From a virus, in the IMG/VR virus record IMGVR_UViG_3300045988_146009, positions 1-64,000 of that record: a stretch of DNA of 64,000 nucleotides. One strand, given 5' to 3'. The position numbers and the translations under genes are program-made. Positions within the stretch are counted from its first letter, which is position 1, and each line of letters opens with the position of its first letter. Under the pieces are notes generated by a model. The model saw only the letters and a program-made list of their open reading frames with translations. It had not been told where the DNA came from and did not search any database. Shown piece by piece: positions 1-25,835 of the stretch.

Positions 1-56
1 CCCGCTACGCCCGCTACGCCCGCTACGCCCGCTACGCCCGCTACGCCCGCTACGCA
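1..56. repeat. Tandem repeat of the 9-mer CCCGCTACG, about 6.2 copies, at the window edge
   Basis: Direct reading: cccgctacg is repeated head-to-tail from base 1. A single copy recurs at 39796..39804. Confidence 0.9.
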
Positions 57-177
57 ACCTGTCGTACCTACCGTTCCCCAGGTTCCTACGAGAGGTAGGA
101 CGGGCCCGGTTCAGAGAGACTATGACTACTTCCGAAAAGTATTCAACGATAGCGATGCTGGTGCAGAGGACCAGGAG

Positions 178-474
178 ATGGCAAAGGGCTACCTGCTGGT
201 GGACCAGATTAAAAATAACCCCAATCTCTCTGCTCGGTATGGCCGAATGTTGGAAAGGGACATCAGAACTTTTGAAAGGTCGCTTCGTTCCCAAGCAAGA
301 ACCGAGAAGGCGCAAGCCCCCCATATCCGTAAGGCCCGAGGTCTTGCAGGAACTCAAGCTGAGAGCATGAGGAATTTGAAGAAAACAAATCCGAAAGCTT
401 ATCAACTTGCGGTATGGAGAGAAGTTCTGAAACAACCTCAGTATCAAGGTCTAACTCTACAGCTTGGTTTTTAG
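178..474 (+). CDS. Hypothetical small basic protein (98 aa)
   Basis: ATG-initiated ORF with a basic, protein-like composition. The overlapping 122..370 frame is W/R-rich and less plausible. A hairpin plus T-run follows at 519..552. Confidence 0.35.
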   Translation: MAKGYLLVDQIKNNPNLSARYGRMLERDIRTFERSLRSQARTEKAQAPHIRKARGLAGTQAESMRNLKKTNPKAYQLAVWREVLKQPQYQGLTLQLGF

Positions 475-506: not shown

Positions 507-3500
507 ATGGTACAAAAAGGGCACAGTCTTTACGGGCTGTGTCCTTTTCTCTTTACAAGAGAGGGATTAACCAACATACTATACGCATCTATGCCGAATG
601 ACACTAACCAAGAACCCTTGACTTATAGGAGTTTCGGACCCAAGAATCCGCAAACTGAATACTATAAGCAGTTGGGGCGAGAACAAAGCCAGACTAGATG
701 GCAGGAAGGAAGACAGGCGAGAGCGCAGGAAGCCCAGCAGACTCCTCTTTCGGAGGAAGCCAAGTTTCTTGATACACTCAACAAGACCTTCAAACAGGAA
801 GAGGAGGCCAGCTATACTCAGGAACAGCGAGCCTATACTCAGGAACAAAGGGCTATCTCTGCTGAGGATAGAGGAATCCGTAAGGAAGAAAAGGAGGAGT
901 CCAAGAAAGAGAAACAGGCTTCGAAGCGAGACAAGCAAATCAGAGACTGGCTTTCTGGTATCAATACCCGTACACCTGGAAAGTCTTTGGGCTTTTCTAC
1001 AGAGGCGGAGTATGAAGACTACCTCACCAAAACTAAGCCTGAAACCCTCGTAGACATTACCAAGTTCAAGGCCAACGACCCCGAAGAAATCGGGCGCGCC
1101 CGCTCTGCTGTTGAAGAGATGGGAGCCTCCCTTGTTCTTAGTGGGGAACATCCTCAAGTGGCCGAAGGTTCTTTCCGTAGTCTGGAACCGCAGGATAAAG
1201 CCAACAGGCTTCTTTCCAAATCCAAGTACGGACTCACCAAAACCGAAGATGGTTCTTATGTGGTAGACGAACGCTTCCTTGCTAGAGTTAATGACCCCTC
1301 CACCGCTGGCATGGGGAACGAGAATATCGCTCGTGCCATTGTAAACAATCTTAAATCCATTATTTCCAAGGAAGATGAAAGAGGCCGCAGTGATTACCTT
1401 ATCCCCGACGTTGAAGAAGTTACCAACCTCGTCAGAAACGCACGAGCAAAGAACAGGGAAACCTACCAAGAGTACGAAAAAATCAGGGAGAGATTCGCAG
1501 TACCAAAGGGTGAAGAAGAACAAAAGGCTGTAGCCCCTGAAAAGGTGGGGGAGCAAAATGGTGGAGACTCTTCTAGGACTCAACCTACTCTGGTGCAACA
1601 TGTGCTGAGTGAGGTTGACAGGTTCTTCACCGTCAACCCGGAAGCTATGGAGTACCTCAACACTCTTGGTGCCAAGACTGGTGAGGAAATTCCCGGAGCT
1701 ATCGAAGACCAAAAGTTTAGAGAGCAAGCCCGTAGGGGTATTGAACTCAAGGACCAACTGGCTCGTGCTATCTCCGAAGCCAACCCCGCCATCGACCTGA
1801 GAACCGTTCGAAATGAACTAGACGACGATGCGCTCCTGTACAGGGAAGCGGTCAGCCAGTTCTATGGTGGAGAGATTCCCGAAGAAGTTTCCTCTGCTAT
1901 CCTCAATCGAACCACACAACTCGCCCAGCAGAGGCAAGCCCTTGTGGCCAGCGACTATGCCAAGGCTGAGAAGGATGCTATCGCTGAACACCTCAAGTCT
2001 CTCGGCTTGGATGAAGGGGTAGCCCTTAGCATAGGTATATCTGGATTAACCAATCGCCATATCGCTGAGAGTGATACGGGGATGGGTACGATGCGTAGTG
2101 CCGTGAACGAAGCACTTCAACAGTATCAGTCAGGTGCGGGACAGCTCGCCGCTTCCATGAGCTTCGGTGAACAGAAAGGTTATCGGGACCCTCTCTCCCA
2201 CATGCAGTGGGTGAACATCGGGGATGGAAAAATAGCCTATGCTTTCGTTGACCCCGGCACAAATGAGCGTGTCGGGAATGGGTTCATTGTAGACTTTGGT
2301 AACGTAGACCAGCAAGCCAAGGCTCTTGGTGTTAGTAGGGAAGCCTACCTTGACAACCTCGCTCTTCCCTTCAAGATGGGCAACCTGAACGCAACGGACG
2401 AAGCGAACTCCTTGTTCGCTTGGGACAAGTTGAACGGTAAGCTCGTTGAGAACGCTACGGCGGAAAGCACAGGGGGTCTTGCCTACTACGACAATGACCT
2501 TATTGAACGAAGTGTCCTTCGTGCAGTTGAAGCTGGGGCCCCTGCTGAGGTGGTAGATAAGTACCGGGAGAACCTTCTCCAACTCCAGAAGCAGAATGCC
2601 AAGGATATGATTGACCAGATGCTCGGGCAGTATGAAGCTGTAGCTAATCTTGTGGCTTCTGATAGCAAGACTCTGGACATTCTGTTCCCCGGAATCCGTC
2701 TCGCAATGAATGCAATGCACAATGACTTCCGGGATTACTATGCGGAGAACAAGGGAAAGATGACCAACGAGGAAATCATTTCTTCCTTCCTTGCTGACGA
2801 GCAGAACCGACAGGGCTTCCTTGCCATCACTATGGCGGGAGCTAAGACCGTAGCCCGTTACAAGGCCGCGGCTATTGGTGCTTCCCAGTTCGTGAGTGAA
2901 GGCTCTCGTATCATAGGTCTTGGAACCGGAGACCCCGCTAAGTACAACAACATGTGGGAGAACCTTCACAAGGAGGAGCAAGCCATTAACACCATCACTA
3001 CCCGTGCTGGTGGGGTTGCTGAATGGGGTGCTGAAATTGGAAACGTCCTGTTGCAGATTGCAGAGACCACAACCACTGGTGGTATCGGTGGGGTTAGCGG
3101 AAGAGTTGGTACTATGACTGGTAGGCTTGCCAAATTGTTTGGTGAAGCTGTTGCCTTCAAGGCCGCTACTCCCGGAACCATGCGTCTCGGTCAGGTAATC
3201 ACGAAGCTCGGTGGCGGGGTGGAACGTCTGGTAGCTGGACCCGGTAGGGCCGCCCTCACTCAGGCTTCTTCCCGTGGTTCCAGTCTGGCTATCTCTGCCA
3301 AGCTCTTCACTGATGCCGCGGCTCCTACCTTTGGGGAAGTGTCCAACGCAACCTACAATGAAGAGATGGCCCGTCTTGCAAAGGACCCCGCTACCGCTGG
3401 GCTTCCTGAATCTGTGCGGATGGAGATGGCGCAGAACGTTGCTACTACCAAGGGAAGTATAGCAGGTATTGGATATGGTATCTTCTCTACTATCCTCAAT

Positions 3501-6500
3501 AACCGCGCTGGTTTCAACCGCATGATTCGCAAAGCCACGGGTGCTACCACCAAGGCCCCCGGTATTTTCGGAAAACTGGAAAGCTCTTTAGAAGGACCTG
3601 GAATCTTCAACCTCAAGGGTCTTCCCGGAAAGGAAAAGGCTATCTCTATTGCCAAGCAAGTTGGTCGTCTCTCTGCCTCCGCTGTTGAAGGTGGCACAGA
3701 AGAACTGGCTGATGAAGCTTTGCAGTGGGCATGGCAAACTCTTACCCAGCACGGGGAAATCCGTGAAGAAGATATTGCCAGTGAGCGTGACGTATGGGAT
3801 GCCGCCAGCAAGATTTTCATTCTCGGTGCAATCGGGGGCGAGGTTGGCCACGGCATTCAGGCCATGACTGCCCTCCCTGCTGAGGTTTCCAATAGAAGAG
3901 ACCAAGCCATCCAAGCCCAACAGCTTTATGGCGAAGCCATGAGGGATGCCCTGGATAGCGACGTAGAAGGAGCCAATACCGCTTTGATTGAAGCATTGAA
4001 GGAAGGACTGGAAAAGAGTTCTGCCATTGCGGATGCCGCCATCACAAGTAAGGAGGCCGCCATGTCGGTAGCTCGTAACGGACATATCCAGGCTGACGAG
4101 AATGTTATCAACGAATGGTCCTCCATGATTAGCCAGTTGCCGGATGGTGCCAGCGTTCAACTCAATAACTTCTCTGCTGAATACAGCAGGTTGAAAAGGA
4201 TTGGGGATGAAACGGGTGCGGCATCTCTGCATCAAGCTTTCGTTGAGGACATTGCGGCGAGTGACAACCTGTCGGACACCCAGCGTCAAATTGCAGGAGA
4301 GCTTATTCTTCAACTTACGCAAGGTACTCCTACCGCGGAGTTCGTGGAAGAGACATCTACCCAGGTGGTTCTGCCAGAGGGACTTGAAGAGTTGGCCGCC
4401 GTTGAAGTAGAAGAAGCCCCCGCCCCGGTAACGGAAGAACTGAAGCCCGAGGGGGACCTTGTTGAGCAGGAGGTTGAGGAAGAAGTTGTTCAAATTGGGG
4501 AACGTGACTACGGGTATAATGCCCCGAACCCGGTCCCCTTTGTTCAGATGCTTTCCGATTGGTACACCAGTGAGACCCCCATTACTCCCGAAATCCGGGG
4601 GGAAATGAACTCCGTGCTTACTGACCTGGAGCTTGAAGACCCCGACATTTATGACTTCATCACGGATGGTAAGGAAGAAGTGGACCGGGCTACGGTTCGC
4701 CGACTCCTCACGGTGGCTAACCTGACCGGACCTGATGGGCCCATCGCTGTTGACATGAAGGGGAACACTGAAATTCAGAAGGGGAATGCCCTGCTGACGG
4801 ACAAGACGGTATGGAGTAAGTATGACAAGAATGTCGAGATACAGGATTCCAACTGGGCCGCAGATGTGTTTAATATGGTGGGCGAAGGAATGCAACCTAT
4901 TCAAAACGTGCTCGACGATGTTCTCAATACTGTTCAGGATGAAAGAACCCGGAACAATATTAAAGACATTGTAGAGTTCCTTGAGGAACGTGGAGTTCCG
5001 GTGAGCGTGGCTACCATTCAGGGGGACAGCAACATTGCTGGTCTCACGATGATGGACCCGTCCTCTCCAGAACAGCATATCGCTCTGAACTTTAGCGCGA
5101 AGAATGTAAAATCCTCCCCTGCTGATGTCCTGCTCCACGAACTAACTCACGTTCTGGACAACCATCTGAGGGAGACAGACCCCCTGTATGCAGAACGCGT
5201 AGCAAGCATCGAAGAAATTGTCCGCTCCAACTGGGCCAACATCCAGAAGGAAGCGGAACGGGTGGCTCGCACTGCTGTAACTGAGGAGGAGCAGGCTGAG
5301 ATTGACCAGTTCATCGCTGAGATGGAACAGGCTTTGTTCAACAAGCAGACTGAGTTTGAGGGTGGACGTGAGTTCCTTCCTAATGTAATTACCAACCCCA
5401 TCATGGGAGAGGTGATTGCACAAGGCAATCTCCCGTTTGACCAAGCTCTCGACCAGTGGGCCTCCCCCAACAACCTTGCTCGAATCTCTCAGATTGGCAG
5501 AGGCAAGGTGAGCAGGATTGTTCATAACCTCATTAATGCTGTGTCCTCCATCCTCAAGGGTGCCCAGGTTGTTGAAGGGAAAGTTAATCCCAACACCGCG
5601 GTTATTCGTGTGGAAGAAGGAACCCTGGCTGACCCGACAAGGATGAAGATTGTCTCTCCGAAGCTGGCTGAATACAAGCCGGGAGTTGAAGACGAGAACG
5701 TATTCATTACGGACCGCGGCGTTGATGCCGCCCTCTTCTCGTCCTCTGAGAACTTTGTCGGAGCAGGGAAGAGACTATTCCGGACGGCGAATGTCAAGGG
5801 TGGATTCACCGCTGACAAACGTACTGGGAAAAAGGTTAAGGAATTCGCTGGTAACTTCCAGACTTACGTTAATGAACTTGTCGCACGAAACGAACGAACC
5901 AAGCGATATGTAACTCAGCAAACGAAGGGAATGGAAGACTCCGAACGGGCTACCGTCATCAACTCCATCGTGAACTACACGGGCGATTTGGGCAACACGC
6001 TCGACCCGAAGGTTACTCGCCGTATCTTTGCGGAGACTAACAACAAGGTCGAACAAGCCAGGGTGGCCAGGGAGGCTGAGGTGGACGCGGCGAACAATGA
6101 GTACGCCAAGTTCATTGCGGACCGGAGGAAGGCTATCATCCAGGCGGAGGCCAGGGTGAACGCCCTTGCCGGGACTCAAGCATTGCAGAATGTTGGAGTA
6201 GCTATTACCCAAGCTGTTCAGGTAGCTAAGGAAGTCCCCCAGGTGGACGAGAAGAACCCGATGGCTGTAGCCGCGGCTCGTTTCAGGAAGGCTCAGGAAG
6301 AACTCAACCCCGTGATGAAAGAGATTTACAGCACGTTGGACGAGGACGCTAAGGCCGAAATGAACGAAGCGTATGATAAGACCATGAAGGCCATTGCGGA
6401 AGACTTGGCCCAGGACTTCGACAACCCTGCTGAAATCGTACCGGGCCTTCTCAGTATCGGTGGACTTCAAAACGTTCCCAGTGTGGACGACTTGTCCGCA

Positions 6501-9500
6501 ATGTTCACTTCGGTCATCAAGGCCAACAGGCTGGGATGGTTGAAGAAGGATGCCGATGCTGTGCGTGCCGCCAAGGATATAACCGTAGCCCAGCAAGCCC
6601 GTAGAGAGCGCATAGCCCAAGCCGAAAAGAACTACCAGACGAAGGTAGGACGAGGAGGCATGAAGAATGGGGTATGGACTTCTCCTGGAACGGTATGGCT
6701 TGAGCGTGATGCGGCCATGCGTGCGGAGAAGAACCGGATGGAAACGGTATACGCCATGAAGAGGAATGAAGCCCGTAAGGAACTTCTCAAATATCCTTTT
6801 GGTGCCCGCCTGCTCAATGTGCTGGACGACAACCGAAGAGCTATTGCTACCATGGAAGCTAACCTGATGCAGAGAAGGGGTGCTATCGGACTCGGAACAA
6901 AGGTGAGGGACTTTACCTACCTCTCCCGAACGTTTGCCGCGGTAGGAAAGGAGTCCATCAACTTCCGTAAGGCCATGATGGAACTACTGGACAGCAACGG
7001 CGAAGTGAAGCCGGAGTTTACCCACCTTGTAGGTATCCTAAACAATGCAATCCAAAGCTACATGAGAGAAAACATCTCCCGTTACAACCGGGGTATTTCG
7101 GAAACCCTCGACAACATGCTTGCTATGAGCAAGGTAGCTGATGAACTTGGTCTGGACGGTAGTGAATACCTTGGCTTCAAGGGAAAGGATGTATGGAAGA
7201 ATGTAAGTGAATACCTGACGAAGGACCCGGCCCTGGCTGAGAGTGCTCTAAACACAATCAACAATGGTCACTGGAACGAGATTGCCAAGATGAAGGATGG
7301 CTCGGTTGAACTCCGTCTCATTATCAACAAGGCGAGCCAGCTAGATAACCTGCTCTCCTCTGCTGATGTTGGGGAGAAGAGCCGACTCCGTAGCAAGATG
7401 CGTAAGGCGAAGGCGGACCTGATGAACAAGGCGGCGGAAGACTATGTGCTTTCCAGTATGGGAGTAACCGATACTGACCTCCGCTCCTTCCTCCTCGGTC
7501 TAAATTCTCCGGAACAAATCACGGAAGCATTCAAATCAACTCCCTACCTGGACTCAAGTGTAATCTCCAACCTGATGGGAACGGATGAAAACCTCCGAAC
7601 CCGCATCAGCAACACCATGGATTATGTGAGAAAGTCCACCGCTATTGAAATGCAGAAGCAGGGGGTAAACCTGACCGCTAACCAGCGGGACATGTCCCTT
7701 CTTGCTGATGGTGAAGTAGCGGATGCCCTGATAGCTACCGCTCGGAATGTGTTCAAGGAGACCCTATCCAAGGAGCGTAACGAAGAAAACATCTTCGCCA
7801 ACCGTAAGAACCTGATGGATAGTGAACTTCAAATTCTTGGAGTTCGCGGGTTCAGTAATCTCACGGATGCCTTCGGTGTTATTCAAAACACCTTGTCCTC
7901 CCAGGGCAGAGCCTATGTCAACCAAGTAATTACGCATGACGTAGCAAGAAGCCTTGAAAGGCATGGGGTTGTTACCGGGGAGAGGACGAAGGAGAATACC
8001 CACCTGCTGGAATTCCAGAACAAGGCCAACCCGCTGAACGGAATGTATGCCGAAAGGGACATCGCCCTTGTCCTCTACCAAGCCATGCGACCTGACGAAG
8101 CAATTATGCGGGGTAAGGAATTTGGGAAGAAGTTGCAGAGCCATTGGGGTAACAACTGGGGAATGCTGAGAAGCATCGGTGGGTTTGTCTCCATGTTGAC
8201 CCTGGTCCGTACTCCCTCCGCTACCCTCCGTAACATGGCGGGGACCATGGGGCAAAGCCTGAACGCAGGTGCTCTCCCGTTTGACAAGGGGGTTATCAAG
8301 GGATATGGGGAAGTGTACCAGCTTGCCCAGGACTTCGTTGTTGCAAACATTCTAAGTGCCGCGGGTTCCGTTGGTGTGAGGGGTGCAGTGAACAGTGAGA
8401 TTATGGCGAACGCTGAGAAGCGATTCAACCAGTCCATGCAGAGGTATCGTGACCTTGGTCTGCTCGACGCGGGCGCGGCGAACTTCATGAAGGAACAGTG
8501 GAAGCAGGGGCTTAATGAAATGAGCCAGAAAGAGGGCAGTGAAATCAGCTTGCCCGACGAGGACGCAATGTTCTCTTCGCTCGTATCGGAACTAGGAGAC
8601 CGGAGCACTGCAAAGAAAGCGATGGACCTCGCCAAGCGCATTGCGTATGGTACGTTCGTTTCGCCTATGAGCGTTGCCGCTTCTGCTTACTCCGTCCCTG
8701 ACGTTATCGCCAAGATAATCCTCTTCAATGGGGAGAGCCACAAGGTAAGCAAGGTAGTGAAAGCCGAGCTCGCACAAGCTGAGAAGCTGAGTAGAGCAGG
8801 AAAGGAAGACAAGCTGACAAGCTACATGAAGGACGCTTTGGCCGCTAAGAAGGAAGGGACTCTTACTTCCTACATTGAACGTAGGGCGGCGGACAGGACG
8901 AAGAACCTTCTTCCCACGGGGGCAAGAACCCCTGACTGGGTGAATAAGGTAAGCATCTTTGGGATGCCCTTCTTCTCCTTCATGTACCACACTTGGCAGA
9001 GTGTACCTTACAGCATTGGCTACGGGATGGAAGAACTTCGCGCCGCAAGGTTTGCAACCAATACGGCAGATAAAGTCTCCCTCTACATGGATGCCACCCA
9101 AAAGTTTGGAGGTGCTATCCTGGGCCAGTATGCTATGATGGAACTGATGCGGTTTGCCCTTCCGATTGTTACTCAAGCAATCATGGGTATGGTCACGGGT
9201 GATGACGAAGAAGACAAGATGCAGATGCTCGAAGCAAGTTCGTTTACCCGTTGGCTTGCACGGAATGCTGGACTCTCCGCGGACTACGACCAGAACGGAG
9301 AACTCTTTTTCTGGTTTGACAAGGATAATGAAACCTTCATAGTCCAGGATGGTCAGTACCTTCTGCCATATAAGAGCCTTGGTGAAACCCTGGGTGCTAT
9401 TATCAACCTCGCTGGATTGAATCCTTTCTCTGACAAGAGTGAGGCTAACCAATTCGAGGATGACTACACCGCCCAGCTTCTGGATTATGTTCAGAGCACG

Positions 9501-10361
9501 GCTGGTTCTCCCTCCATGTGGATTCAAATGCTCATTGATATGGGTTCAAAGGAACCCCGTCAAAGCGCAGACCTGAAACAACTGGGTGGGGTATCAGCAA
9601 TCCCGGAAGCCTTTGGGAATGCCCTGCTCATGAGCTTAGGACTCCGCCCTTCTGCTGAACTTGCGGGAGGTAGGACGCTCGACTGGATGGAAAGGATAGC
9701 TACGACTGTAAAGGATAACCTCCCCCTATGGCCTACTCTGGTTCAGGGGGTGCAGACCTGGACAGGGATGAATCCGGATAGTGAAAAGGCAGGATGGTTG
9801 TTGAAGAACCTTGGCTTTGGTGTTCGTCGTCCCAAGAATATTAATGATGTCCTCCGGGACAGTCTTGCTAAAGGTAACAAGGACCTCTCCAATTCGTTGA
9901 AGAACCAGCGCATCATGGATACCAACCTTTACACGGCTGACCTTAGCGATGCAGAGTATGACAAGATTATCGAAGCTGATAAGGCTATGGTAATTGAGCA
10001 GAGTATTTCCCTCGCTAATAGGTTCCTGGCGTTGAAGGGGTTCCTCAAGGGGATGGGAGTCAAGGACGTTGACACGGTTCTTGAAGCATCTGCTCAGGAG
10101 GCGGGCATATCGTTGAAGGCTATGGATGACCTTATCTCTGGCCGGGCCAAAGACTTCATCTCTAACCAGAGGTTTGACAAGATTGAAGAGACGAGAGACC
10201 GCTTGCTTAACAGGCCCGGTATTACTCCGGAAGCTAAGAAAGCCATCCTCCGCCAGTTCCAACAAGCTGAGAAGGTGTATGACATCGACGCAGTAGATAT
10301 TACTTCCAGCTTGATTGAGCCGGATAATGTGGAGCAGGAGGTGAAGAGCCAGAAGAGATAG
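507..10361 (+). CDS. Giant virion-associated/ejected protein (3284 aa; probable true start at 591). It has an internal HExxH zincin-like motif and long Ala/Glu/Gln/Lys-rich helical regions. Candidate polyvalent/cargo protein.
   Basis: Uninterrupted 9.85-kb ORF. The motif LLHELTHVLDNH is at nt 5136..5150. No DxDGD or NADFDGD RNAP motif was found by eye. Every antisense ORF over this interval is shorter (longest 516 aa at 3588..5138) and treated as artefact. Confidence 0.85.
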   Translation: MVQKGHSLYGLCPFLFTREGLTNILYASMPNDTNQEPLTYRSFGPKNPQTEYYKQLGREQSQTRWQEGRQARAQEAQQTPLSEEAKFLDTLNKTFKQEEEASYTQEQRAYTQEQRAISAEDRGIRKEEKEESKKEKQASKRDKQIRDWLSGINTRTPGKSLGFSTEAEYEDYLTKTKPETLVDITKFKANDPEEIGRARSAVEEMGASLVLSGEHPQVAEGSFRSLEPQDKANRLLSKSKYGLTKTEDGSYVVDERFLARVNDPSTAGMGNENIARAIVNNLKSIISKEDERGRSDYLIPDVEEVTNLVRNARAKNRETYQEYEKIRERFAVPKGEEEQKAVAPEKVGEQNGGDSSRTQPTLVQHVLSEVDRFFTVNPEAMEYLNTLGAKTGEEIPGAIEDQKFREQARRGIELKDQLARAISEANPAIDLRTVRNELDDDALLYREAVSQFYGGEIPEEVSSAILNRTTQLAQQRQALVASDYAKAEKDAIAEHLKSLGLDEGVALSIGISGLTNRHIAESDTGMGTMRSAVNEALQQYQSGAGQLAASMSFGEQKGYRDPLSHMQWVNIGDGKIAYAFVDPGTNERVGNGFIVDFGNVDQQAKALGVSREAYLDNLALPFKMGNLNATDEANSLFAWDKLNGKLVENATAESTGGLAYYDNDLIERSVLRAVEAGAPAEVVDKYRENLLQLQKQNAKDMIDQMLGQYEAVANLVASDSKTLDILFPGIRLAMNAMHNDFRDYYAENKGKMTNEEIISSFLADEQNRQGFLAITMAGAKTVARYKAAAIGASQFVSEGSRIIGLGTGDPAKYNNMWENLHKEEQAINTITTRAGGVAEWGAEIGNVLLQIAETTTTGGIGGVSGRVGTMTGRLAKLFGEAVAFKAATPGTMRLGQVITKLGGGVERLVAGPGRAALTQASSRGSSLAISAKLFTDAAAPTFGEVSNATYNEEMARLAKDPATAGLPESVRMEMAQNVATTKGSIAGIGYGIFSTILNNRAGFNRMIRKATGATTKAPGIFGKLESSLEGPGIFNLKGLPGKEKAISIAKQVGRLSASAVEGGTEELADEALQWAWQTLTQHGEIREEDIASERDVWDAASKIFILGAIGGEVGHGIQAMTALPAEVSNRRDQAIQAQQLYGEAMRDALDSDVEGANTALIEALKEGLEKSSAIADAAITSKEAAMSVARNGHIQADENVINEWSSMISQLPDGASVQLNNFSAEYSRLKRIGDETGAASLHQAFVEDIAASDNLSDTQRQIAGELILQLTQGTPTAEFVEETSTQVVLPEGLEELAAVEVEEAPAPVTEELKPEGDLVEQEVEEEVVQIGERDYGYNAPNPVPFVQMLSDWYTSETPITPEIRGEMNSVLTDLELEDPDIYDFITDGKEEVDRATVRRLLTVANLTGPDGPIAVDMKGNTEIQKGNALLTDKTVWSKYDKNVEIQDSNWAADVFNMVGEGMQPIQNVLDDVLNTVQDERTRNNIKDIVEFLEERGVPVSVATIQGDSNIAGLTMMDPSSPEQHIALNFSAKNVKSSPADVLLHELTHVLDNHLRETDPLYAERVASIEEIVRSNWANIQKEAERVARTAVTEEEQAEIDQFIAEMEQALFNKQTEFEGGREFLPNVITNPIMGEVIAQGNLPFDQALDQWASPNNLARISQIGRGKVSRIVHNLINAVSSILKGAQVVEGKVNPNTAVIRVEEGTLADPTRMKIVSPKLAEYKPGVEDENVFITDRGVDAALFSSSENFVGAGKRLFRTANVKGGFTADKRTGKKVKEFAGNFQTYVNELVARNERTKRYVTQQTKGMEDSERATVINSIVNYTGDLGNTLDPKVTRRIFAETNNKVEQARVAREAEVDAANNEYAKFIADRRKAIIQAEARVNALAGTQALQNVGVAITQAVQVAKEVPQVDEKNPMAVAAARFRKAQEELNPVMKEIYSTLDEDAKAEMNEAYDKTMKAIAEDLAQDFDNPAEIVPGLLSIGGLQNVPSVDDLSAMFTSVIKANRLGWLKKDADAVRAAKDITVAQQARRERIAQAEKNYQTKVGRGGMKNGVWTSPGTVWLERDAAMRAEKNRMETVYAMKRNEARKELLKYPFGARLLNVLDDNRRAIATMEANLMQRRGAIGLGTKVRDFTYLSRTFAAVGKESINFRKAMMELLDSNGEVKPEFTHLVGILNNAIQSYMRENISRYNRGISETLDNMLAMSKVADELGLDGSEYLGFKGKDVWKNVSEYLTKDPALAESALNTINNGHWNEIAKMKDGSVELRLIINKASQLDNLLSSADVGEKSRLRSKMRKAKADLMNKAAEDYVLSSMGVTDTDLRSFLLGLNSPEQITEAFKSTPYLDSSVISNLMGTDENLRTRISNTMDYVRKSTAIEMQKQGVNLTANQRDMSLLADGEVADALIATARNVFKETLSKERNEENIFANRKNLMDSELQILGVRGFSNLTDAFGVIQNTLSSQGRAYVNQVITHDVARSLERHGVVTGERTKENTHLLEFQNKANPLNGMYAERDIALVLYQAMRPDEAIMRGKEFGKKLQSHWGNNWGMLRSIGGFVSMLTLVRTPSATLRNMAGTMGQSLNAGALPFDKGVIKGYGEVYQLAQDFVVANILSAAGSVGVRGAVNSEIMANAEKRFNQSMQRYRDLGLLDAGAANFMKEQWKQGLNEMSQKEGSEISLPDEDAMFSSLVSELGDRSTAKKAMDLAKRIAYGTFVSPMSVAASAYSVPDVIAKIILFNGESHKVSKVVKAELAQAEKLSRAGKEDKLTSYMKDALAAKKEGTLTSYIERRAADRTKNLLPTGARTPDWVNKVSIFGMPFFSFMYHTWQSVPYSIGYGMEELRAARFATNTADKVSLYMDATQKFGGAILGQYAMMELMRFALPIVTQAIMGMVTGDDEEDKMQMLEASSFTRWLARNAGLSADYDQNGELFFWFDKDNETFIVQDGQYLLPYKSLGETLGAIINLAGLNPFSDKSEANQFEDDYTAQLLDYVQSTAGSPSMWIQMLIDMGSKEPRQSADLKQLGGVSAIPEAFGNALLMSLGLRPSAELAGGRTLDWMERIATTVKDNLPLWPTLVQGVQTWTGMNPDSEKAGWLLKNLGFGVRRPKNINDVLRDSLAKGNKDLSNSLKNQRIMDTNLYTADLSDAEYDKIIEADKAMVIEQSISLANRFLALKGFLKGMGVKDVDTVLEASAQEAGISLKAMDDLISGRAKDFISNQRFDKIEETRDRLLNRPGITPEAKKAILRQFQQAEKVYDIDAVDITSSLIEPDNVEQEVKSQKR
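519..552 (+). terminator. Putative intrinsic terminator hairpin (8-bp stem with one mismatch, T-run)
   Basis: GGGCACAG...CTGTGTCC followed by TTTTCTCTTT. It lies inside the 5' end of the longest version of the giant ORF, which suggests the real start is the ATG at 591. Confidence 0.4.
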
Positions 10362-10390
10362 TAAATAAAACACAGGCATAGAACAGAATA

Positions 10391-10428
10391 CCCCCTTGAC
10401 CTTCGCGGGTTAAGGGGGTATATTTTAT
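10391..10428 (+). terminator. Putative terminator hairpin after the giant gene
   Basis: CCCCCTT...AAGGGGG 7-bp stem followed by TATATTTTAT. Confidence 0.45.
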
Positions 10429-11036: not shown

Positions 11037-11050
11037 GAAAAAATACAAAA

Positions 11051-11090
11051 AGCCCCGAAGAGAACTGGAAAAACTCTTCGGGGCTTTTTG
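11051..11090. terminator. Strong, probably bidirectional, intrinsic terminator at the convergence of the + and - blocks
   Basis: AGCCCCGAAGAG-loop-CTCTTCGGGGCT, a 12-bp perfect stem. An A-run lies 5' and TTTTTG lies 3'. Confidence 0.75.
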
Positions 11091-19573: not shown

Positions 19574-20247
19574 TTTGCAAAGAAGTTAGACGTTGACCGG
19601 ATATAGGGGCGGGTATAGTGCAGTCTCATGTTAGGGTAAACTTCCTTTTCCAATACGTCTTCCAACTCATAAGAGCTTTTCAAAACTTTCTGAATAAGGA
19701 CTTTGGCTTTTTCTACCGCTTTAGAATGGTTCTTGAAAGCTTCTTCAATCTTGACAAGCTCACTGTTCACGAAGTTTATGCACTTGTCCAGTTCCGTTTT
19801 AAAGTTAGGGTTAAGCCGTCCATTTTGCGAAGTGGTAATACCCTCCAGAACATACCGTTCATAACGGGAACTCCATGTGTCTTCCCCGTAAATATCCTTA
19901 ACTCCGGTAGGGAGCATGACGCGCAGGGAAATAGCGGGGAAGAAGGTGCGTGAAGAATAGTTGTCTACGCTTCCCGGAGCAAGGACGCTTGCCCCTCTAA
20001 CATAATCATCTCCTCGGAAGTGCCTATTGAGAATATGACTAACATTACTCCAATCCTTTTCCCTCATAACCTTAAATTCGCCTGACTTTGTTTTAAAATC
20101 TGGACTGTCAAAAACGACTTTGAGATATTCAAGTGCATCCTTAAGCCGTTCATAGAAATATTGAAGTCCTTTCAAGTCACGCATGGCCTTATCATCTTCT
20201 TCAACGAATTTCCGAATAAAGTAGTTCATCATATCATTATTATTCAT
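19570..20247 (-). CDS. Hypothetical protein (225 aa)
   Basis: ORF. The conserved TAGAAAGACA leader lies upstream. Confidence 0.55.
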   Translation of the reverse strand: MNNNDMMNYFIRKFVEEDDKAMRDLKGLQYFYERLKDALEYLKVVFDSPDFKTKSGEFKVMREKDWSNVSHILNRHFRGDDYVRGASVLAPGSVDNYSSRTFFPAISLRVMLPTGVKDIYGEDTWSSRYERYVLEGITTSQNGRLNPNFKTELDKCINFVNSELVKIEEAFKNHSKAVEKAKVLIQKVLKSSYELEDVLEKEVYPNMRLHYTRPYIRSTSNFFAK

Positions 20248-20279
20248 TTCTTTTTGTCTTTCTATTTTTGTTTGTAGTT

Positions 20280-20972
20280 TTAGAGATTGTAGAATTTAAT
20301 ATATTCTTCCCTGCTTTTAAATGTCCTCACCTTCCCCCCGTGACCGTTGTATACGATTGTTTCAATTCCTTCGCCATTCGAACGGTTGTCATAAACATGA
20401 ATAGTAGAGCCGTCTTTTAAAGTAAAAGCCGTAGCAATTCCCTTATACTTAGGGTTTTTACGGGAGACTACACTGCGTGCGAGGTTGTAATTAGTATACA
20501 CACGCCCCATTTTTTGAGGCCACGGGTATGGGGTGCTATCCAGGCTCATAAACACATGGTCCATGCCGTTAGGATAGGAAAAGAAGTCCCATTTTTCCGG
20601 AGCTAGTTCGGCATCCCATTTGACTAGGTGAGTTAGCGAAAATTGGAACTGTGCATAAAACGGAACCAAATCCTCAAAGGCGAAAAGGAAACGTGCTCCC
20701 TGCTCAATAGCGTACTTAACCATTTTTTTACCAAATCCTTTCCCCTGGAATAGGTGAGAGACTATGAGGGAAACAAGTTCCCCCTCCGCGGTTATCGAAA
20801 ATACTCCGACGATGGAGCCGTCATTTACTAGCCTGAAACACTTGCATCCATTATCCCTGTACCAGTCACCGGGGTAAACGTCAACATGTACCTGATTCAT
20901 GTCTGACAGATAATGGCGCAGTTCCCCTGCAAGGCTCTCCATTGCATAAGGATTTATCTTTTCAATATACAT
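20280..20972 (-). CDS. GNAT-family N-acetyltransferase domain fused to a C-terminal domain of unknown function
   Basis: The acetyl-CoA-binding motif Q/R-x-x-G-x-G/A is present as HLFQGKGFGKKMVKYAIEQGARF. The roughly 130-aa C-terminal part is unrecognised. Confidence 0.65.
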   Translation of the reverse strand: MYIEKINPYAMESLAGELRHYLSDMNQVHVDVYPGDWYRDNGCKCFRLVNDGSIVGVFSITAEGELVSLIVSHLFQGKGFGKKMVKYAIEQGARFLFAFEDLVPFYAQFQFSLTHLVKWDAELAPEKWDFFSYPNGMDHVFMSLDSTPYPWPQKMGRVYTNYNLARSVVSRKNPKYKGIATAFTLKDGSTIHVYDNRSNGEGIETIVYNGHGGKVRTFKSREEYIKFYNL

Positions 20973-21065
20973 TTTCTTTTGTCTTTCTGTTTGTTGTGCC
21001 GGACGTTTTGGCCTCCGGCTCGCCTTACATGAACAGTTATACCATAGGAGCAGGGAAAAACAAGA

Positions 21066-21905
21066 CTAATCTTTTTTGTCTTGTGTCATACACCAATTAA
21101 ACGCCGCTTTACCTTGTTCAGAAATGGCCCATGGACTAAAAGAACGGTGGACAATACGGGGGCGGGTAACCACTTCTGCTAGAATACATCCATCTTCTTC
21201 CATGCTTTTATTACAATTGCATGGCATAGGGGTTCCCTTGCATTCTCCTCCCCTGTTTTTACGAATATGGCTCTCATAATCCATTGTTAGTAGCAATTCC
21301 TTTAACTCTTTCATGGCCTTATAATTATGGATAGGGTAAGCCATTCGCAAAGAGGTAGAGCTAAAATTCTCTGACTCTAAATAGATTGTGAGATAAAACT
21401 CCTTATTCTCCGTGTTTTCCGTAACGTGTGCAGTATACACGGCTTCCTCACCCTCCAAAATGTTCACAACGTCAGCCTCATACTCAATATATTGAGTTTC
21501 AGGGAGTTCTTCCGTTTTTGCAGGTTGTTTCGGAGCGTCCTTAATGGGCGTAGCGTACACATCAACCGTTGCACAGGGGAGGCCAAAACAGGGATATTGA
21601 TTAAAAGAATCCTCCGTTCCCTCAATTTCGACAATTACCTTCCATTCAGCGCGGAAATCGTCAAGTTCAGCGCGGTCTTCCTCGCTAAGTTCGCCTTCAT
21701 CATCTCCATACCCCATTAAATAAGGGAATGCCCATTGAGGAACGCCCTCAACCCTTTCGTAACTGTCTGACGTTTCATCCGTTTCAGATAAGATAATGTA
21801 CGTACTTCCGCAATGGGGGCATAGTCCGTTTAGAGGCGTAACGCTTCGGTTATCGCATTCCATGCAGTCATATTTTTCGTTTTCGTCGATAATAACAGTG
21901 CTCAT
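21066..21905 (-). CDS. Hypothetical protein with an N-terminal zinc ribbon (CMEC...CPHC), 279 aa
   Basis: ORF. The conserved 5' leader repeat lies upstream at 21906..21975. Confidence 0.6.
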   Translation of the reverse strand: MSTVIIDENEKYDCMECDNRSVTPLNGLCPHCGSTYIILSETDETSDSYERVEGVPQWAFPYLMGYGDDEGELSEEDRAELDDFRAEWKVIVEIEGTEDSFNQYPCFGLPCATVDVYATPIKDAPKQPAKTEELPETQYIEYEADVVNILEGEEAVYTAHVTENTENKEFYLTIYLESENFSSTSLRMAYPIHNYKAMKELKELLLTMDYESHIRKNRGGECKGTPMPCNCNKSMEEDGCILAEVVTRPRIVHRSFSPWAISEQGKAAFNWCMTQDKKD

Positions 21906-22029
21906 TTTTATGTTTTCTATTTTAGTTTGTTGGTTGGTTGCGGGGTTGTGTTCCCCTTACGCAATCCTTTATATTATATTAGAGGGGAAACGCAAGGGAA
22001 ATGTTCATGCCTTGTGTCATACTTAACTG

Positions 22030-22332
22030 TTAAGGCTTTACGAGGTATTCTTTATAAATCTTCAACGCTTCTCCATGCGTTCTTGGTGCTTCATTCCCAT
22101 CTATGGCTCCCCACATGCTTAATATTTCAAAGTTCGTTTCCGTCCTTTTCATGGACAAAACGGCATAAATGTTATACTTTAGTTGTCCATCTTTCCGGAA
22201 AGCCTTGTCTTTAGGTATGTCATTGTCTATAGCTAATGGGCCGTTAAACGGTTGCTTGAAAAACTTAAATTCCGTAACTTCCTCATTTGCATAGGGGTAC
22301 AAATCTTTCGTCCAATAATATACTTTTTTCAT
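22030..22332 (-). CDS. Hypothetical protein (100 aa)
   Basis: ORF. The perfect palindrome GTTCCACGTGGAAC lies 10 nt upstream of the start. Confidence 0.5.
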   Translation of the reverse strand: MKKVYYWTKDLYPYANEEVTEFKFFKQPFNGPLAIDNDIPKDKAFRKDGQLKYNIYAVLSMKRTETNFEILSMWGAIDGNEAPRTHGEALKIYKEYLVKP

Positions 22333-22376
22333 TTTAGGATTGTTCCACGTGGAACATTTTAGTTATTGATTTGTGA

Positions 22377-22946
22377 TTAGGCGGTTATAGTCTTTTTGAC
22401 TGATAGAGTCAAATGGTAGCGGGTAAAACAAGCTCCTGTATCCGAATCATAAGAACAATTGGCCCGCAACTCTTCATGTTCTGCTTCAACCATTTCCGCT
22501 AGTTCGTTAGGCGAACAATCCAGAACAGGGGTGTACGCCTCAATTTTGGTGAGGAAAAAGTTGGCTTCAATTTCTTTTGTCTTCCCTCCGTTCTTTCTTA
22601 CAAGGTTTTCCACCGTGCCTAGTGCCGCGGTCAGAATCTCCTTGCGTTTATCCTGCAATATGGTAATAATCGCAAGCGGCTTTCCTTCAATGCGTTGGAT
22701 ACGGGAACAAACCAAAAAGCCTTGTTTGTGCAATACATTTAAAGCAACGTCTTTTTTGTCCACCGGAACGGCAATGCGTCGAATGTTGTGCTCTACCTGC
22801 TTCTCCGTTGCTGATTGCAGGTCATAAACCTTACAACCTAAGCCTGTTAAGGTATTCAGGATGATTTTTGAAAAAAAGTCTTTACGCATCTTTTTGAATA
22901 AGCCATGTTGTTTCGGTAGTTTCCCGGTCAAATCCAATGCTTGCAT
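22377..22946 (-). CDS. Hypothetical protein (189 aa; start possibly at 22889)
   Basis: ORF. The long form overlaps the 22882..23115 ORF. Confidence 0.5.
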   Translation of the reverse strand: MQALDLTGKLPKQHGLFKKMRKDFFSKIILNTLTGLGCKVYDLQSATEKQVEHNIRRIAVPVDKKDVALNVLHKQGFLVCSRIQRIEGKPLAIITILQDKRKEILTAALGTVENLVRKNGGKTKEIEANFFLTKIEAYTPVLDCSPNELAEMVEAEHEELRANCSYDSDTGACFTRYHLTLSVKKTITA

Positions 22947-23115
22947 AAGACGGCCCTACAAAGTCACTGACTTCACGGACGATTTTAATGTCTGGACCTG
23001 CTTTAGCTAAAACCCTTAATAGCAGGTTCTTTCCGGGTTTAAAAGAGAGTTCTACTTTTTCAACTCCTTCCCGGTTGTTCAAATGGCTTAATGCTTCAAA
23101 TAGTTTCTTGTTCAT
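22882..23115 (-). CDS. Hypothetical protein (77 aa)
   Basis: ORF only. Confidence 0.4.
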   Translation of the reverse strand: MNKKLFEALSHLNNREGVEKVELSFKPGKNLLLRVLAKAGPDIKIVREVSDFVGPSYASIGFDRETTETTWLIQKDA

Positions 23116-23120
23116 GTTTT

Positions 23121-23537
23121 TTATGCGTTAAAGTTAAAGGCTTTTTGAATATTTTTCCCCTGTACCGTTACGGACGTGAGGGAATACATTTTATACTGCA
23201 ACATGTGTATGTTTTGTTCAGACTTTAGGGCAAGGATTTTTGAATCATACTTGTTTGTCTTATCAATCGCCACCTCTACCACGGCACAATAGGCAAACCA
23301 TAAGAGAGTTAATGCGCTTGCGTAAACTCCAACGATACAAAAAAGCTCCGTTACGTTGGTTCCGTTGTAAATCTTGGTTGCCAAAATGATGACAAGAATA
23401 AAGGCAAGCCATGCAGAGATTCTTTCAAAGTTCAATCCATCCAAGGCCCTATATATTCCCCGCCACCTTTTAAATGAGCGGGTGAGTTCCGAAATCTCAC
23501 GGGCGTGAACAAAGCTAGCGTAAAAAGCGTATTTCAT
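23121..23537 (-). CDS. Integral membrane protein (2 TM helices), 138 aa
   Basis: Hydrophobic stretches WLAFILVIILATKIY and LFCIVGVYASALTLLWFAYCAVV. Confidence 0.5.
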   Translation of the reverse strand: MKYAFYASFVHAREISELTRSFKRWRGIYRALDGLNFERISAWLAFILVIILATKIYNGTNVTELFCIVGVYASALTLLWFAYCAVVEVAIDKTNKYDSKILALKSEQNIHMLQYKMYSLTSVTVQGKNIQKAFNFNA

Positions 23538-23542
23538 AAATG

Positions 23543-23743
23543 TTAGAAGTTAAGGGCCGATATAAAACGCTTCATTTCAGCGATAGAGGTGCATTCAAAT
23601 GTTAGTGCTGGATTCCAATTTGAGCGGAAAATAAATCCTCCCTCCGTTTTCTGAACATAGGCAAAGGTGGAGAGCAATTCTTCCCTATCATGGATAAAGC
23701 TATTTTCCAGTCTGTCCAGAGCATCAATGTCTTTCTTATTCAT
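23543..23743 (-). CDS. Hypothetical small protein (66 aa)
   Basis: ORF. Conserved leader AACTAAAATAGAAAAATG. Confidence 0.4.
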   Translation of the reverse strand: MNKKDIDALDRLENSFIHDREELLSTFAYVQKTEGGFIFRSNWNPALTFECTSIAEMKRFISALNF

Positions 23744-23855
23744 TTTTCTATTTTAGTTTTAGGCGGTTGCCTCGTTACGTGTTTCTTTATAACATTTTTG
23801 AGCAGGTAAACAAGGAAAATGTTCATGCCTTGTGTCATACTTCACTGTTAATCAG

Positions 23856-24191
23856 TTATGCAGAAAAATTAAAATTTAGCATATCCGGGTGCGTGGTAAA
23901 TTGTAGTTGTCTATCCTCAAAAATGACAAATCCTAAGATGTTGCTATCAATACTCATTCTCTTTTTTAACTCTATAGCGAGATTGTGGAGGACGGTATGC
24001 CCGCATAAGGTCCACGCTAGCATTGCGTGGCTTACAAGCTCCCCTGCATCATTCCGGGTTATGGGGTGGATGTGGATGCCTTGTCTTCCAACGTCATCAT
24101 ACAAGTCCCACAACATAAATTGGTTATCATACACAATGCAATCCGGGAAAATCTCCTTCAAATCCTGCAAATATTCTTTTATTTCTTTCAT
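23856..24191 (-). CDS. Hypothetical protein (111 aa)
   Basis: ORF only. Confidence 0.5.
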   Translation of the reverse strand: MKEIKEYLQDLKEIFPDCIVYDNQFMLWDLYDDVGRQGIHIHPITRNDAGELVSHAMLAWTLCGHTVLHNLAIELKKRMSIDSNILGFVIFEDRQLQFTTHPDMLNFNFSA

Positions 24192-24218
24192 GGTTCTATG
24201 TCTTTCTAATTTAGGGGT

Positions 24219-24554
24219 TTAAACTAAGTCAATAGCGCGTAAAAACAAACGCTTGTCATGGTCAAAATAGGTCCACCCGTACTTTCCGAGGTTGTATCCG
24301 GCTACTTTCCTATCTCCATGTATCCGGTGAGGCATCCATTCGACACTGATATTTTCTTCCCCTACCCCGTGGATGACGGCATGAGTTCCTTCCTCCATCA
24401 ATTCCCGGAGGGTTCCGAAACGGACAAAACTGCGGGCAACTTGGTAGTGTGTATGACCTTCCTTTTTGTAATACTCTTCTGCAAACTTATGCAGGCCCTT
24501 GCTTGGTTTTTGTATGATTATCATTGTTTTATGTCTTTCCAGTTTATTTTCCAA
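24219..24554 (-). CDS. Hypothetical protein (111 aa)
   Basis: ORF only. Confidence 0.5.
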   Translation of the reverse strand: MENKLERHKTMIIIQKPSKGLHKFAEEYYKKEGHTHYQVARSFVRFGTLRELMEEGTHAVIHGVGEENISVEWMPHRIHGDRKVAGYNLGKYGWTYFDHDKRLFLRAIDLV

Positions 24555-24831
24555 GGGATATTTTAGTAAGGGCCTCCCTCATTTTCTCCATGCTAGCGGC
24601 GTATATAAAATGACGCACAAGGGGAGTTGCATCCGTGCGGGTTGCAAGATAACCTAACCCTGTTTTATCAATCCAATAAGGCACTGATTCCAGAGTTATC
24701 CTTGCCCCTTCTGCCCCTAATTTTTCCAGCTCCAATAGTGCTTTTAAATCGTTGGATGTTAACATTTTCTTGTATCTTTCTATTTTAGTTCGTTGCTTGG
24801 TTGGTTGTAGGGTTGTGTTCCCCTTACGCAT
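24544..24831 (-). CDS. Hypothetical protein (95 aa)
   Basis: ORF. The conserved 50-nt leader lies upstream at 24832..24860. Confidence 0.45.
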   Translation of the reverse strand: MRKGNTTLQPTKQRTKIERYKKMLTSNDLKALLELEKLGAEGARITLESVPYWIDKTGLGYLATRTDATPLVRHFIYAASMEKMREALTKISLGK

Positions 24832-24911
24832 TCTTTATAGCATCTTTGAGCAGGGGCACAAGCGTTTTATTTCACGTTTGTGTCATACAAAATTGTTCCA
24901 CGTGGAACTTT

Positions 24912-25604
24912 TTATCTCTCCGCATGTTCTTTTACCTTGTCACGTTTAACCAACGGCAAGACGGGAGGAAACACCCCGCTTGCGTAGTCCTCCCGGCTAA
25001 CTCCCTGCCAAGCATAACCTTTGTATGTAGGCTGACGGCGTTTTACTACGTTGTTAATTCCAGCCGCTAACCCCTTTACCGCCCGCGCCGCATCCCAGTA
25101 ACTAGGATACATGGTGATAGGCTCCAGGGTTTCCCGGTTTATCTGCATGACGGGCCGCGCGGATTTGTGCAATCCCTTTTCAATGTTCCCCTTCAATGTC
25201 TTTTTCCGTTTTTTCACGCAGTTACCGTAACGTATGTTTTCCCGGTGAGTACACCATTGCAGATTCTCCGCACGGTTGTTCATGGGGTTTTCATCTAAAT
25301 GGTTTACATCTAACTCGCTTATTTTGTACCCTTTAAGATGCGCGCCTAACGGCACAAACGCACCCGCAACAAGGCGATGAACATAATATTTATAGTGCCA
25401 TCCTCCCTTTTCATCCAGCAAGGGAACATATTTATAACCGTTCCGGCTAGTCTGGATGCGTAAAAGCCTGTTGACAAGCTTGCTCCACACCGCGCCCATG
25501 TTACTCACAAGGTACAATTCCCTGCAACCTTTCAGCGGTACAGGTTCCCACAGTTCCCCCGGTCTAGTACATTCAGCTAGTGTCTTCTTCTCCTTCTTCT
25601 TCAC
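24912..25604 (-). CDS. HNH homing endonuclease (HNH_3 core plus a C-terminal AP2/NUMOD-like DNA-binding region)
   Basis: Motif LDVNHLDENPMNNRAENLQWCTHRENIRYGN. The C-terminal part carries YKGYAWQ. Confidence 0.7.
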   Translation of the reverse strand: MKKKEKKTLAECTRPGELWEPVPLKGCRELYLVSNMGAVWSKLVNRLLRIQTSRNGYKYVPLLDEKGGWHYKYYVHRLVAGAFVPLGAHLKGYKISELDVNHLDENPMNNRAENLQWCTHRENIRYGNCVKKRKKTLKGNIEKGLHKSARPVMQINRETLEPITMYPSYWDAARAVKGLAAGINNVVKRRQPTYKGYAWQGVSREDYASGVFPPVLPLVKRDKVKEHAER

Positions 25605-25789: not shown

Positions 25790-25835
25790 GTCTCCTTTAT
25801 ATAGTAGGCACGCCGTTTTTCAAGCTTTTTGTGCG

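Follow-up and report, generated by a model that had tools for sequence, protein, structure and literature searches.

The first 64,000 nucleotides of the virus record IMGVR_UViG_3300045988_146009 (IMG/VR), henceforth referred to as the window (the whole stretch of DNA analysed), carry close to their left end a rightward gene for a giant protein. An earlier reading of the letters, to which we refer as the original prediction, had described a 3284-aa open reading frame (ORF) with an embedded HExxH motif and no recognisable catalytic motif of an RNA polymerase (RNAP). The ORF is confirmed as a single reading frame of 3284 codons at 507..10361 (+) and is a real gene, of ~3,250 codons, of an uncultured human-gut phage. 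Since all homologues begin at the position of M29 (ATG 591), and since a terminator- or attenuator-like hairpin with a 14-bp stem and a following U-run (minimum free energy -30.5 kcal/mol, z = -4.26) lies between the upstream gene u1 and the giant gene, within the first 28 codons of the reading that starts at ATG 507, the true start is probably ATG 591, which shortens the product to 3256 aa. Here we show by profile-profile comparison that the domain around the HExxH motif is homologous to subdomain C1 of the virion RNA polymerase (vRNAP) of phage N4, and report that searches of its sequence detect no RNAP domain in the giant protein.

The sequence LLHELTHVLDNH is present in the protein, and HELTH at aa 1544-1548 is its sole HExxH. 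In a protein with 24 His and 278 Glu, any HExxH arose in only 1.3% of 20,000 residue shuffles. Each of the 39 family members that are complete or nearly so has a single HExxH (at aa ~1490-1600) and, 67-76 residues beyond it, an 'EF', and the motif is retained down to 24% identity among relatives; the motif picked out in the original prediction is therefore real and not a product of chance. The family-invariant residues around the site are H1544, E1545, H1548, D1551, Y1561, E1622, F1623, N1630 and P1631, among which E1622 is a candidate third metal ligand of the gluzincin-like kind. Further invariant blocks are K..LLPTGxRTPxWV..P.F.F..HT (aa 2799-2829), the DYDxxG[DE] core (aa 2926-2932) and AVEGGxEELxDExxxW (aa 1059-1074, nt 3681-3728), the last within a Gly/Ala-rich region that also holds a glycine-zipper-like hydrophobic helix (nt 3789-3857). 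The hydropathy maxima of several clades coincide with this helix (near aa 1095-1115), and the Gly/Ala-rich region is a candidate membrane-inserting segment. Cysteine is absent from all 3256 residues, compared to an average of 1.3% in 22 other genes of the window; members of the giant family have 0-3 and the 3,500 residues of N4 vRNAP none. AlphaFold2 predicts, at low confidence, a secondary structure that is nearly all helix, and long Ala/Glu/Lys-rich stretches are present.

No match to the giant protein was found in Pfam, PHROGs, NCBIfam or PDB sequences (phmmer and profile searches) or among 50,697 phage records (megablast, tblastn). A word-indexed search of 5.8 billion proteins returned a single almost identical protein and a compact group at 49-51% identity (7 protein clusters), to which the same search with the family profile added no further members. 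HMMER, run exhaustively with aa 1330-2529 as the query against 1.84 billion representatives, added only two more giants, at 25-26% identity. Pattern scans located 43 loci in IMG/VR, in 6-7 clades, and 46 loci in metagenome assemblies, many of them labelled human gut and on contigs of 65-73 kb; a scan of 185,579 bacterial and archaeal genomes returned no relatives. The giants form 6-7 clades at 24-52% identity, all 3,200-3,380 aa long and collinear over their whole length, and, as judged by these comparisons, the protein founds a family of at least six clades. Phages of the family reach up to ~160x assembly coverage in some samples. The terminase of the window phage has no tblastn match in phages, and its DNA polymerase is ~25% identical to those of many unrelated phages and equidistant from many groups; by these measures the phage is very distant from cultured phages and belongs to a deep-branching, uncultured lineage of ~70-kb gut phages.

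Relationship of the HExxH domain to N4-type virion RNA polymerases

The vRNAP of phage N4 (gp50, 3,500 aa) has a C-terminal domain (CTD) in which subdomain C1 (residues 2124-2375) carries a conserved HExxH and is followed by C2, a large helical subdomain without known relatives, as described in a 2026 structural paper (PMC13434306). What the ~2,400 residues outside the polymerase do in N4-type vRNAPs, and what their conserved HExxH site is for, are still open questions in the literature (PMC13434306, PMC13492108). Comparison with N4 vRNAP, which the original prediction had proposed, proved productive. We compared a family profile (12 sequences from 7 clades) with a Schitoviridae profile built from the C-terminal regions of 80 IMG/VR loci, reduced to 57 representatives, across which, and in phage R22Y, the HExxH is conserved. 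Whole-protein hhalign paired aa 1470-1683 with N4 residues 2142-2346 (probability 84.5%, E = 7e-6, score 69), a second whole-length run gave a probability of 76.5%, and domain-level L-INS-i profiles gave 96.8% (E = 2.6e-10, score 73.8) over 176 columns (aa 1469-1686 versus C1 ~2141-2349). As controls, the scores of 30 block shuffles were 14.2 ± 2.9 and did not exceed 22, and that of the reversed profile was 17.2. When the 12 residues around HExxH were removed from both profiles, the remainder scored 43.1 (E = 1.1e-5), with contributions of 23.7 from the part before the motif and 25.5 from the part after it. In the alignment, E1622-F1623...N1630 is paired with NEFMAW..N of the Schitoviridae, at a distance past the second His of 74 residues here and 78 in N4, and this spacing fits a gluzincin-like third ligand. 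Overall, these results show, at the level of comparison between hidden Markov models (HMMs), that aa 1469-1686 of the giant protein are homologous to vRNAP C1.

The phage R22Y (Alteromonas phage vB_AmeP-R22Y; PP212876, unannotated; loci L127/L132) is a distant N4-like phage, with a portal that shares 34% identity with that of N4. Its giant gene is apparently divided among four ORFs, with lengths of 919, 457, 1008 and 2083 aa, the last of which has a weak RNAP match together with a C1 domain with HEIVH at residue 1087, so the modules of vRNAP appear to be separable.

The original prediction had also read the motif as that of a zincin-like metallopeptidase. In Pfam, the giant family gives sub-threshold matches to Peptidase_M91 (E = 0.0064) and M90, and the N4-family C1 gives sub-threshold matches to SprT-like (4 of 8 sequences), Tox-MPTase4 and M91, all of them limited to the strand and helix around the motif (~15-75 residues). 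An AlphaFold2 model of aa 1330-1800 (pLDDT 53.4) places three strands right before the HExxH helix, which is followed by further helices, a predicted layout that is compatible with a zincin core. The domain shares with minimal zincins (SprT/Wss1-like proteins, Tox-MPTase4, M90/M91 and the ArdC protease domain) a predicted beta-strand leading into a predicted HExxH helix and a candidate downstream Glu, but differs from them in that the matches lie below cut-offs, the third ligand would be spaced by ~74 residues and no fold match was obtained. Since all the Pfam peptidase matches are below threshold and the AlphaFold2 model is of low confidence, membership of a peptidase family is not established and catalysis can only be presumed; 'zincin metallopeptidase' is a likeness only.

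Search for a polymerase domain in the giant protein

The DxDGD motif belongs to multisubunit and two-barrel RNAPs, whereas N4 vRNAP is a T7-like single-subunit enzyme with other motifs, and we therefore considered both types. DxDGD and DxDxD-type patterns are absent from the giant protein (regex search), there is no PHROG or Pfam match to a DPBB-type RNAP and the DYDxxG[DE] block lacks the canonical spacing. The motifs of the Schitoviridae RNAP are MTRVGR (T/DxxGR), EADGVTNGP (motif A), RGIAKNPLTITIYG (motif B, RxxxKx7YG) and FDGMN (motif C), and no counterpart of TxxGR, EADG, the motif B sequence or FDG occurs in the giant protein. The Pfam vRNAP families miss the giant protein and readily match Schitoviridae fragments (positive control P0014). 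No credible hhalign match to the RNAP domain of N4 (residues 998-2103) was obtained, and none at all from any segment before the HExxH domain; nor was another RNAP gene found among the window ORFs tested. Within the reach of these sequence searches, no RNAP domain is detectable in the giant protein. The statement in the original prediction that no RNAP catalytic motif is recognisable, which referred to DxDGD, thus stands and extends to the N4/T7-type motifs. The crAss-like virion RNAP (gp66-type) and cargo proteins, to which the original prediction had likened the protein, are also giant, presumably packaged and from human-gut phages, but the giant protein has no DxDGD/DPBB signature and no PHROG, tblastn or HMM similarity to them, and a crAss-type RNAP was rejected.

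Two matches to mini-vRNAP exceed their controls. In hhalign, aa 2632-2810 pair with mini-vRNAP residues 202-370 (score 37.8, E = 0.0018) and aa 2801-2822 with residues 571-592 (score 31.6, E = 0.011); both pairs, with probabilities of at most 15%, were also seen in a separate run, and 13 shuffled or reversed controls for these pairs scored 14-22. Since five segments were tested, the P-values of these matches have to be multiplied by five. The matched stretch, aa 2632-2822 (window 8400-8972), covers part of the most conserved block of the family, lies downstream of the HExxH domain and corresponds to non-adjacent pieces of the RNAP. These matches could be due to chance, to a shared helical motif or to a polymerase remnant; they are the one piece of sequence evidence that speaks for a cryptic or vestigial polymerase, and they are unexplained.

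Genomic context of the giant gene

The other genes of the window mark it clearly as phage DNA and include those for a primase-helicase, a family-A DNA polymerase, a helicase, an exonuclease, a large terminase, a thymidylate synthase and an endolysin, and the features of the giant gene and its flanks are collected in Table 1. In L001, a relative of 73.4 kb, the last genes of the rightward late operon are an endolysin-like gene, genes of 98, 161, 953, 244 and 421 aa, the giant gene (3238 aa) and a gene of ~200 aa, and a leftward block of small genes converges on the late-operon end. The trio of ~840-985, 245 and 356-421 aa, the giant gene and the ~200-aa gene are kept across clades. The late operon of N4 ends with gp53 (885 aa), gp52 (150 aa), gp51 (644 aa) and gp50, and in Vibrio Schitoviridae the corresponding three genes are of 624-672, 227-297 and 285-402 aa (for example 624-297-402-vRNAP), to which the order and sizes 953-244-421-giant come close. 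Further upstream, the window has genes of 761, 106, 386, 424, 202 and 315 aa, compared to 763, 115, 405, 401, 208 and 299 aa for gp59 (the portal) to gp54 of N4.

Table 1. Coordinates of the giant gene, its conserved parts and its flanking elements in the window
Feature	Position	Strand	Remarks
u1, 3' end (157 codons)	1..474	+	upstream gene; 65% identity to L001:8628-9890
Hairpin and U-run between u1 and giant gene	516..547	+	14-bp stem; terminator- or attenuator-like
Giant gene from probable start M29	591..10361	+	3256 aa, 358 kDa, pI 5.1, no Cys
Gly/Ala-rich region, aa 851-1122	3057..3872	+	weak likeness to N4 vRNAP N-terminal domain 225-444
C1-like HExxH domain, aa 1469-1686	4911..5564	+	profile-profile match to N4-type vRNAP subdomain C1
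HELTH (H1544, E1545, H1548)	5136..5150	+	family-invariant; putative metal ligands and catalytic Glu
E1622-F1623...N1630-P1631	5370..5399	+	invariant; 74 residues past H1548; aligns with Schitoviridae C1 NEFMAW..N
Most conserved family block, aa 2795-2843	8889..9035	+	K..LLPTGxRTPxWV..P.F.F..HT..S..Y
G..xDYDxxG[DE]L block, aa 2922-2933	9270..9305	+	conserved; in ~440-aa C-terminal extension; not canonical DxDxD
Hairpin, 15-bp stem and T-run	10388..10421	+	27 nt past giant-gene stop; resembles intrinsic terminator of late operon
d1, ~200 aa	10431..11036	+	conserved downstream gene; 11 Cys in most clades, CxxC pairs

In frame 1, nt 1-474 encode (Pro-Ala-Thr)n followed by the final 137 residues of the u1 protein, whose counterpart in L001 is the 421-aa gene that directly precedes the giant gene. 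The six tandem copies of CCCGCTACG at the edge of the window (nt 1-55) are therefore coding, as (PAT)6 within u1. In relatives, u1 encodes 356-421 aa, rich in Pro/Gln and without cysteine in all clades, whereas u3 (~950 aa) has 10-17 Cys and d1 is likewise cysteine-rich. The d1 protein (at 19750-20382 in L001) looks zinc-finger-like; its gene sits beyond the terminator-like hairpin and is followed by a perfect 17-bp bidirectional terminator (11046-11090). Since the late operon has this order and terminator-like hairpins flank the gene, the giant gene closes the series of large genes in the late structural operon and is not a genome-end gene. The original prediction had argued from the neighbouring tandem repeats and from the position of the gene that its product is injected first; that argument is lost, given that the repeats are coding and that the gene, bracketed by hairpins, closes a late operon as N4 gp50 does. 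A scan for sigma-70 promoters was not enriched over shuffles and is thus uninformative on the transcription strategy.

Several features elsewhere in the window and in L001 were noted. The region at 26000-27000, which separates the leftward early block from the rightward replication genes, is non-coding and AT-richer, and is dense in iteron-like repeats (26249-26490) whose spacings are multiples of 9 nt, further direct repeats and a 50-nt inverted repeat (26497-26546 / 26810-26859); it is likely to be a replication origin or a divergent control region. The minus-strand genes at 20241-24836 have repeated intergenic cassettes upstream, with an A-rich leader, AAAC(T/A)AAAATAGAAAGACAAAAGAAATG, on the coding strand and no Shine-Dalgarno sequence, and the cassettes comprise two copies of a 48-77 nt element with the hairpin GGGGTTGTGTTCCCC. 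They suggest phage-specific promoter/terminator units and a host without Shine-Dalgarno-led initiation, for example one of the Bacteroidota. The early block also contains genes for a GNAT acetyltransferase and a DUF6926 protein (20283-20972 (-) and 21069-21905 (-)) and one of two NUMOD4 + HNH_3 homing-endonuclease genes (24915-25604 (-)), the other of which lies between the DNA polymerase and helicase genes (36374-37111 (+)). The early block of L001 has an IS605 OrfB / TnpB (Cas12f-like) gene (25580-26791 (-)), and nothing is found at the equivalent place in the window. The thymidylate synthase gene (55943-56638 (+); PHROG 85, E = 6e-51) stands in the middle of the structural operon, flanked on one side by the gene (53390-55459) for a tail protein that has a Phage_tail_C tip domain and on the other by more late genes.

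Proposed role of the giant protein and alternatives

We consider it somewhat better than an even chance that the giant protein is a ~358 kDa virion-packaged, host-ejected protein that bears a zincin-like module and is a counterpart, without the RNAP, to the Schitoviridae vRNAP, working much as the non-polymerase scaffold of N4 vRNAP does, and it is probably an injected 'pilot' protein. The virion-packaged, host-injected nature of the protein, from which the original prediction started, is still the best reading, although packaging, ejection and catalysis are steps that we infer. Copies of the protein would be packed in the capsid, like N4 gp50 and T7 gp16, and would be threaded unfolded through the tail at infection, which we propose as the reason for the absence of cysteine. 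The Gly/Ala-rich N-terminal region may help to build or anchor a trans-envelope conduit, together with the cysteine-free u1 protein. On the cell side, the C1-like module would refold around a metal ion and act as a zincin-type hydrolase, most likely as a protease on the ejected protein itself or on a host protein near the entering DNA, in the manner of ArdC/SprT; alternatively, it may be a purely structural metal site. A long helical C-terminal part would follow this module, and early transcription would then rely on host RNAP. Circumstantial support for ejection comes from the absence of cysteine in the giant protein, in u1 and in N4 vRNAP, and from the glycine-zipper helix.

The likeness to the Schitoviridae vRNAP (N4 gp50; PDB 9PNR, 11GP) extends to a single giant chain of similar size, encoded at the end of the late operon behind three genes of comparable sizes, to the lack of cysteine, to the HExxH...E subdomain (C1/CTD1) with matching preceding helix and strand elements, and to a weak resemblance in the Gly-rich N-terminal segment. 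The giant protein differs in having no T7-like RNAP domain or motifs and ~440 extra C-terminal residues, and its family comes from human-gut metagenomes and has no cultured member. Podovirus ejection proteins (T7 gp14/gp15/gp16 and N4/DEV gp51-gp52) are similar in their place at the end of the structural module, in being large and helical, in their expected unfolded passage through the tail and in embedding an enzymatic module in a long scaffold, which in T7 gp16 is a lytic transglycosylase. Sequence or profile similarity to them is absent, however, and the giant protein is 2-3x larger and its module zincin-like rather than a transglycosylase.

Several observations weigh against the proposal of an ejected, RNAP-less counterpart. 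BLASTP, HMMER profile-versus-sequence and reverse searches gave no link between the family and N4 vRNAP; since the HMMER family profiles do not retrieve N4 vRNAP, which is present in the PDB sequence set, the C1 homology is seen in HMM-HMM comparison alone. Outside C1, aa 851-1122 match residues 225-444 in N4 vRNAP's N-terminal domain (NTD) with an hhalign score of 48 (E = 1e-3; controls ≤31), but this match is weak at the domain level (E = 0.028 over 47 columns only), and the gap between the NTD-like and C1-like parts is ~350 aa, compared to ~1,700 in N4. The C-terminal end matched C2 (CTD2-4, N4 2376-3500) in a thin profile (score 47, E = 2e-3), but its scores fell to null level once the profiles were improved, and also when C2 was tested on its own, locally and globally, with 15 shuffles; C2 homology is unproven. 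Only C1 is thus demonstrably related to vRNAP at the level of sequence profiles. The u3, u2, u1, d1, portal-, capsid-, gp54/55/57/58-like and terminase genes show no detectable similarity to those of six Schitoviridae (phmmer, hhalign), so the synteny with this family is one of order and size only; the DNA polymerase has no special affinity to Schitoviridae either, and the C1 domain could be an independent acquisition. Because the NTD match is weak, C2 is at null level and no similarity of the neighbouring genes to those of Schitoviridae was detected, orthology of the whole protein with gp50 is hypothetical. No curated Pfam peptidase family reaches its cut-off for the HExxH domain, the structure models are poor (pLDDT 38.6 and 53.4) and without a fold match, and packaging, ejection, metal binding and catalysis are all steps that we infer. 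The stronger proposition, that both in position and in evolutionary origin the protein corresponds to N4 vRNAP, in an abundant, deep-branching gut-phage lineage in which the polymerase was never present or was lost, is tentative, and we would rather doubt than assert it.

The original prediction had offered polyvalent effector proteins as another match, in which case the protein would be an injected polyprotein that its zincin cleaves into anti-defence or host-takeover modules, and the link to vRNAP would be a shared mobile peptidase domain. The HExxH domain is indeed conserved and zincin-like and is the only part demonstrably shared with vRNAP, and the size, the absence of cysteine and the late-operon position suit an injected protein; the polyvalent proteins of phages and conjugative elements are likewise long, injected and often equipped with a zincin-like peptidase, a type of domain that reportedly recurs among them. 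However, no methylase, helicase, ParB, MuF, ADP-ribosyltransferase or LPD family was found (Pfam, PHROGs, NCBIfam), so that neither anti-defence modules nor any second effector domain could be recognised, and the protein is collinear over its whole length in every clade, without domain shuffling, whereas polyvalent proteins are mosaic. In addition, N4 vRNAP, which has the homologous domain, is described as an unprocessed chain of 3,500 residues (PMC13492108). We therefore rejected a polyvalent protein as the identification and regard this explanation as improbable.

A true vRNAP orthologue, with a polymerase that has diverged or been rearranged, perhaps within aa 2500-3284, would mean that the phage injects its own RNAP as N4 does. 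The size class, the operon position and the absence of cysteine are those of N4 gp50, the window ORFs tested offer no other RNAP gene, LPTGxRTPxWV and DYDxxG[DE] are invariant, and the two mini-vRNAP matches score above their controls. Yet none of the four T7/N4-type catalytic motifs is present, nor is DxDxD, no Pfam vRNAP model matches, and the weak matches are not collinear with the RNAP, skip ~200 residues that include TxxGR and motif A, are located after C1 and not before it, and have the low probabilities given above. An orthologue of this kind thus seems quite improbable, and we judge it still more so, indeed very unlikely, that a polymerase of an unrecognised kind lies hidden in the conserved C-terminal third.

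A conventional structural protein retained in the particle (a tape measure, tail fibre, inner-core protein or scaffold), whose HExxH is a structural or vestigial metal site, is a poor candidate too: its late-operon location, its mostly helical prediction with Ala/Glu/Lys-rich stretches and the lack of any enzymatic family at threshold would suit one, but neither the giant protein nor its neighbours match a tape-measure or tail-fibre family (Pfam, PHROGs), for which reason this identification was rejected, a tape measure of 3,256 aa would imply a tail of ~480 nm (an estimate at 1.5 Å per residue), the invariance of HExxH and E across clades at 24% identity and Schitoviridae argues for a functional site, and the sole relative that can be demonstrated is known to undergo ejection (PMC13434306). 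Of the two outcomes that the original prediction had named as contrary to it, a tape-measure or tail profile and a DPBB fold of an RNAP, neither was found in the profile and motif searches.

On the stronger proposition above, which we hold to be less likely than not, the giant HExxH scaffold would be an ancient DNA-ejection device onto which the Schitoviridae grafted a T7-like RNAP, and the HExxH domain would have its function in ejection or in entry into the host and not in transcription. A widespread gut-phage family that keeps the HExxH domain, the size and the gene position without a detectable polymerase amounts to a natural 'deletion mutant' of vRNAP, which suggests that the HExxH has its role in packaging, ejection or host entry and not in transcription, and it provides a second, independent system in which the role of this domain can be probed. 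Overall, the results annotate the largest gene of an uncharacterised group of ~70-kb human-gut phages and point to a route by which a virion RNAP could have arisen, namely insertion of a polymerase into an ejection protein.

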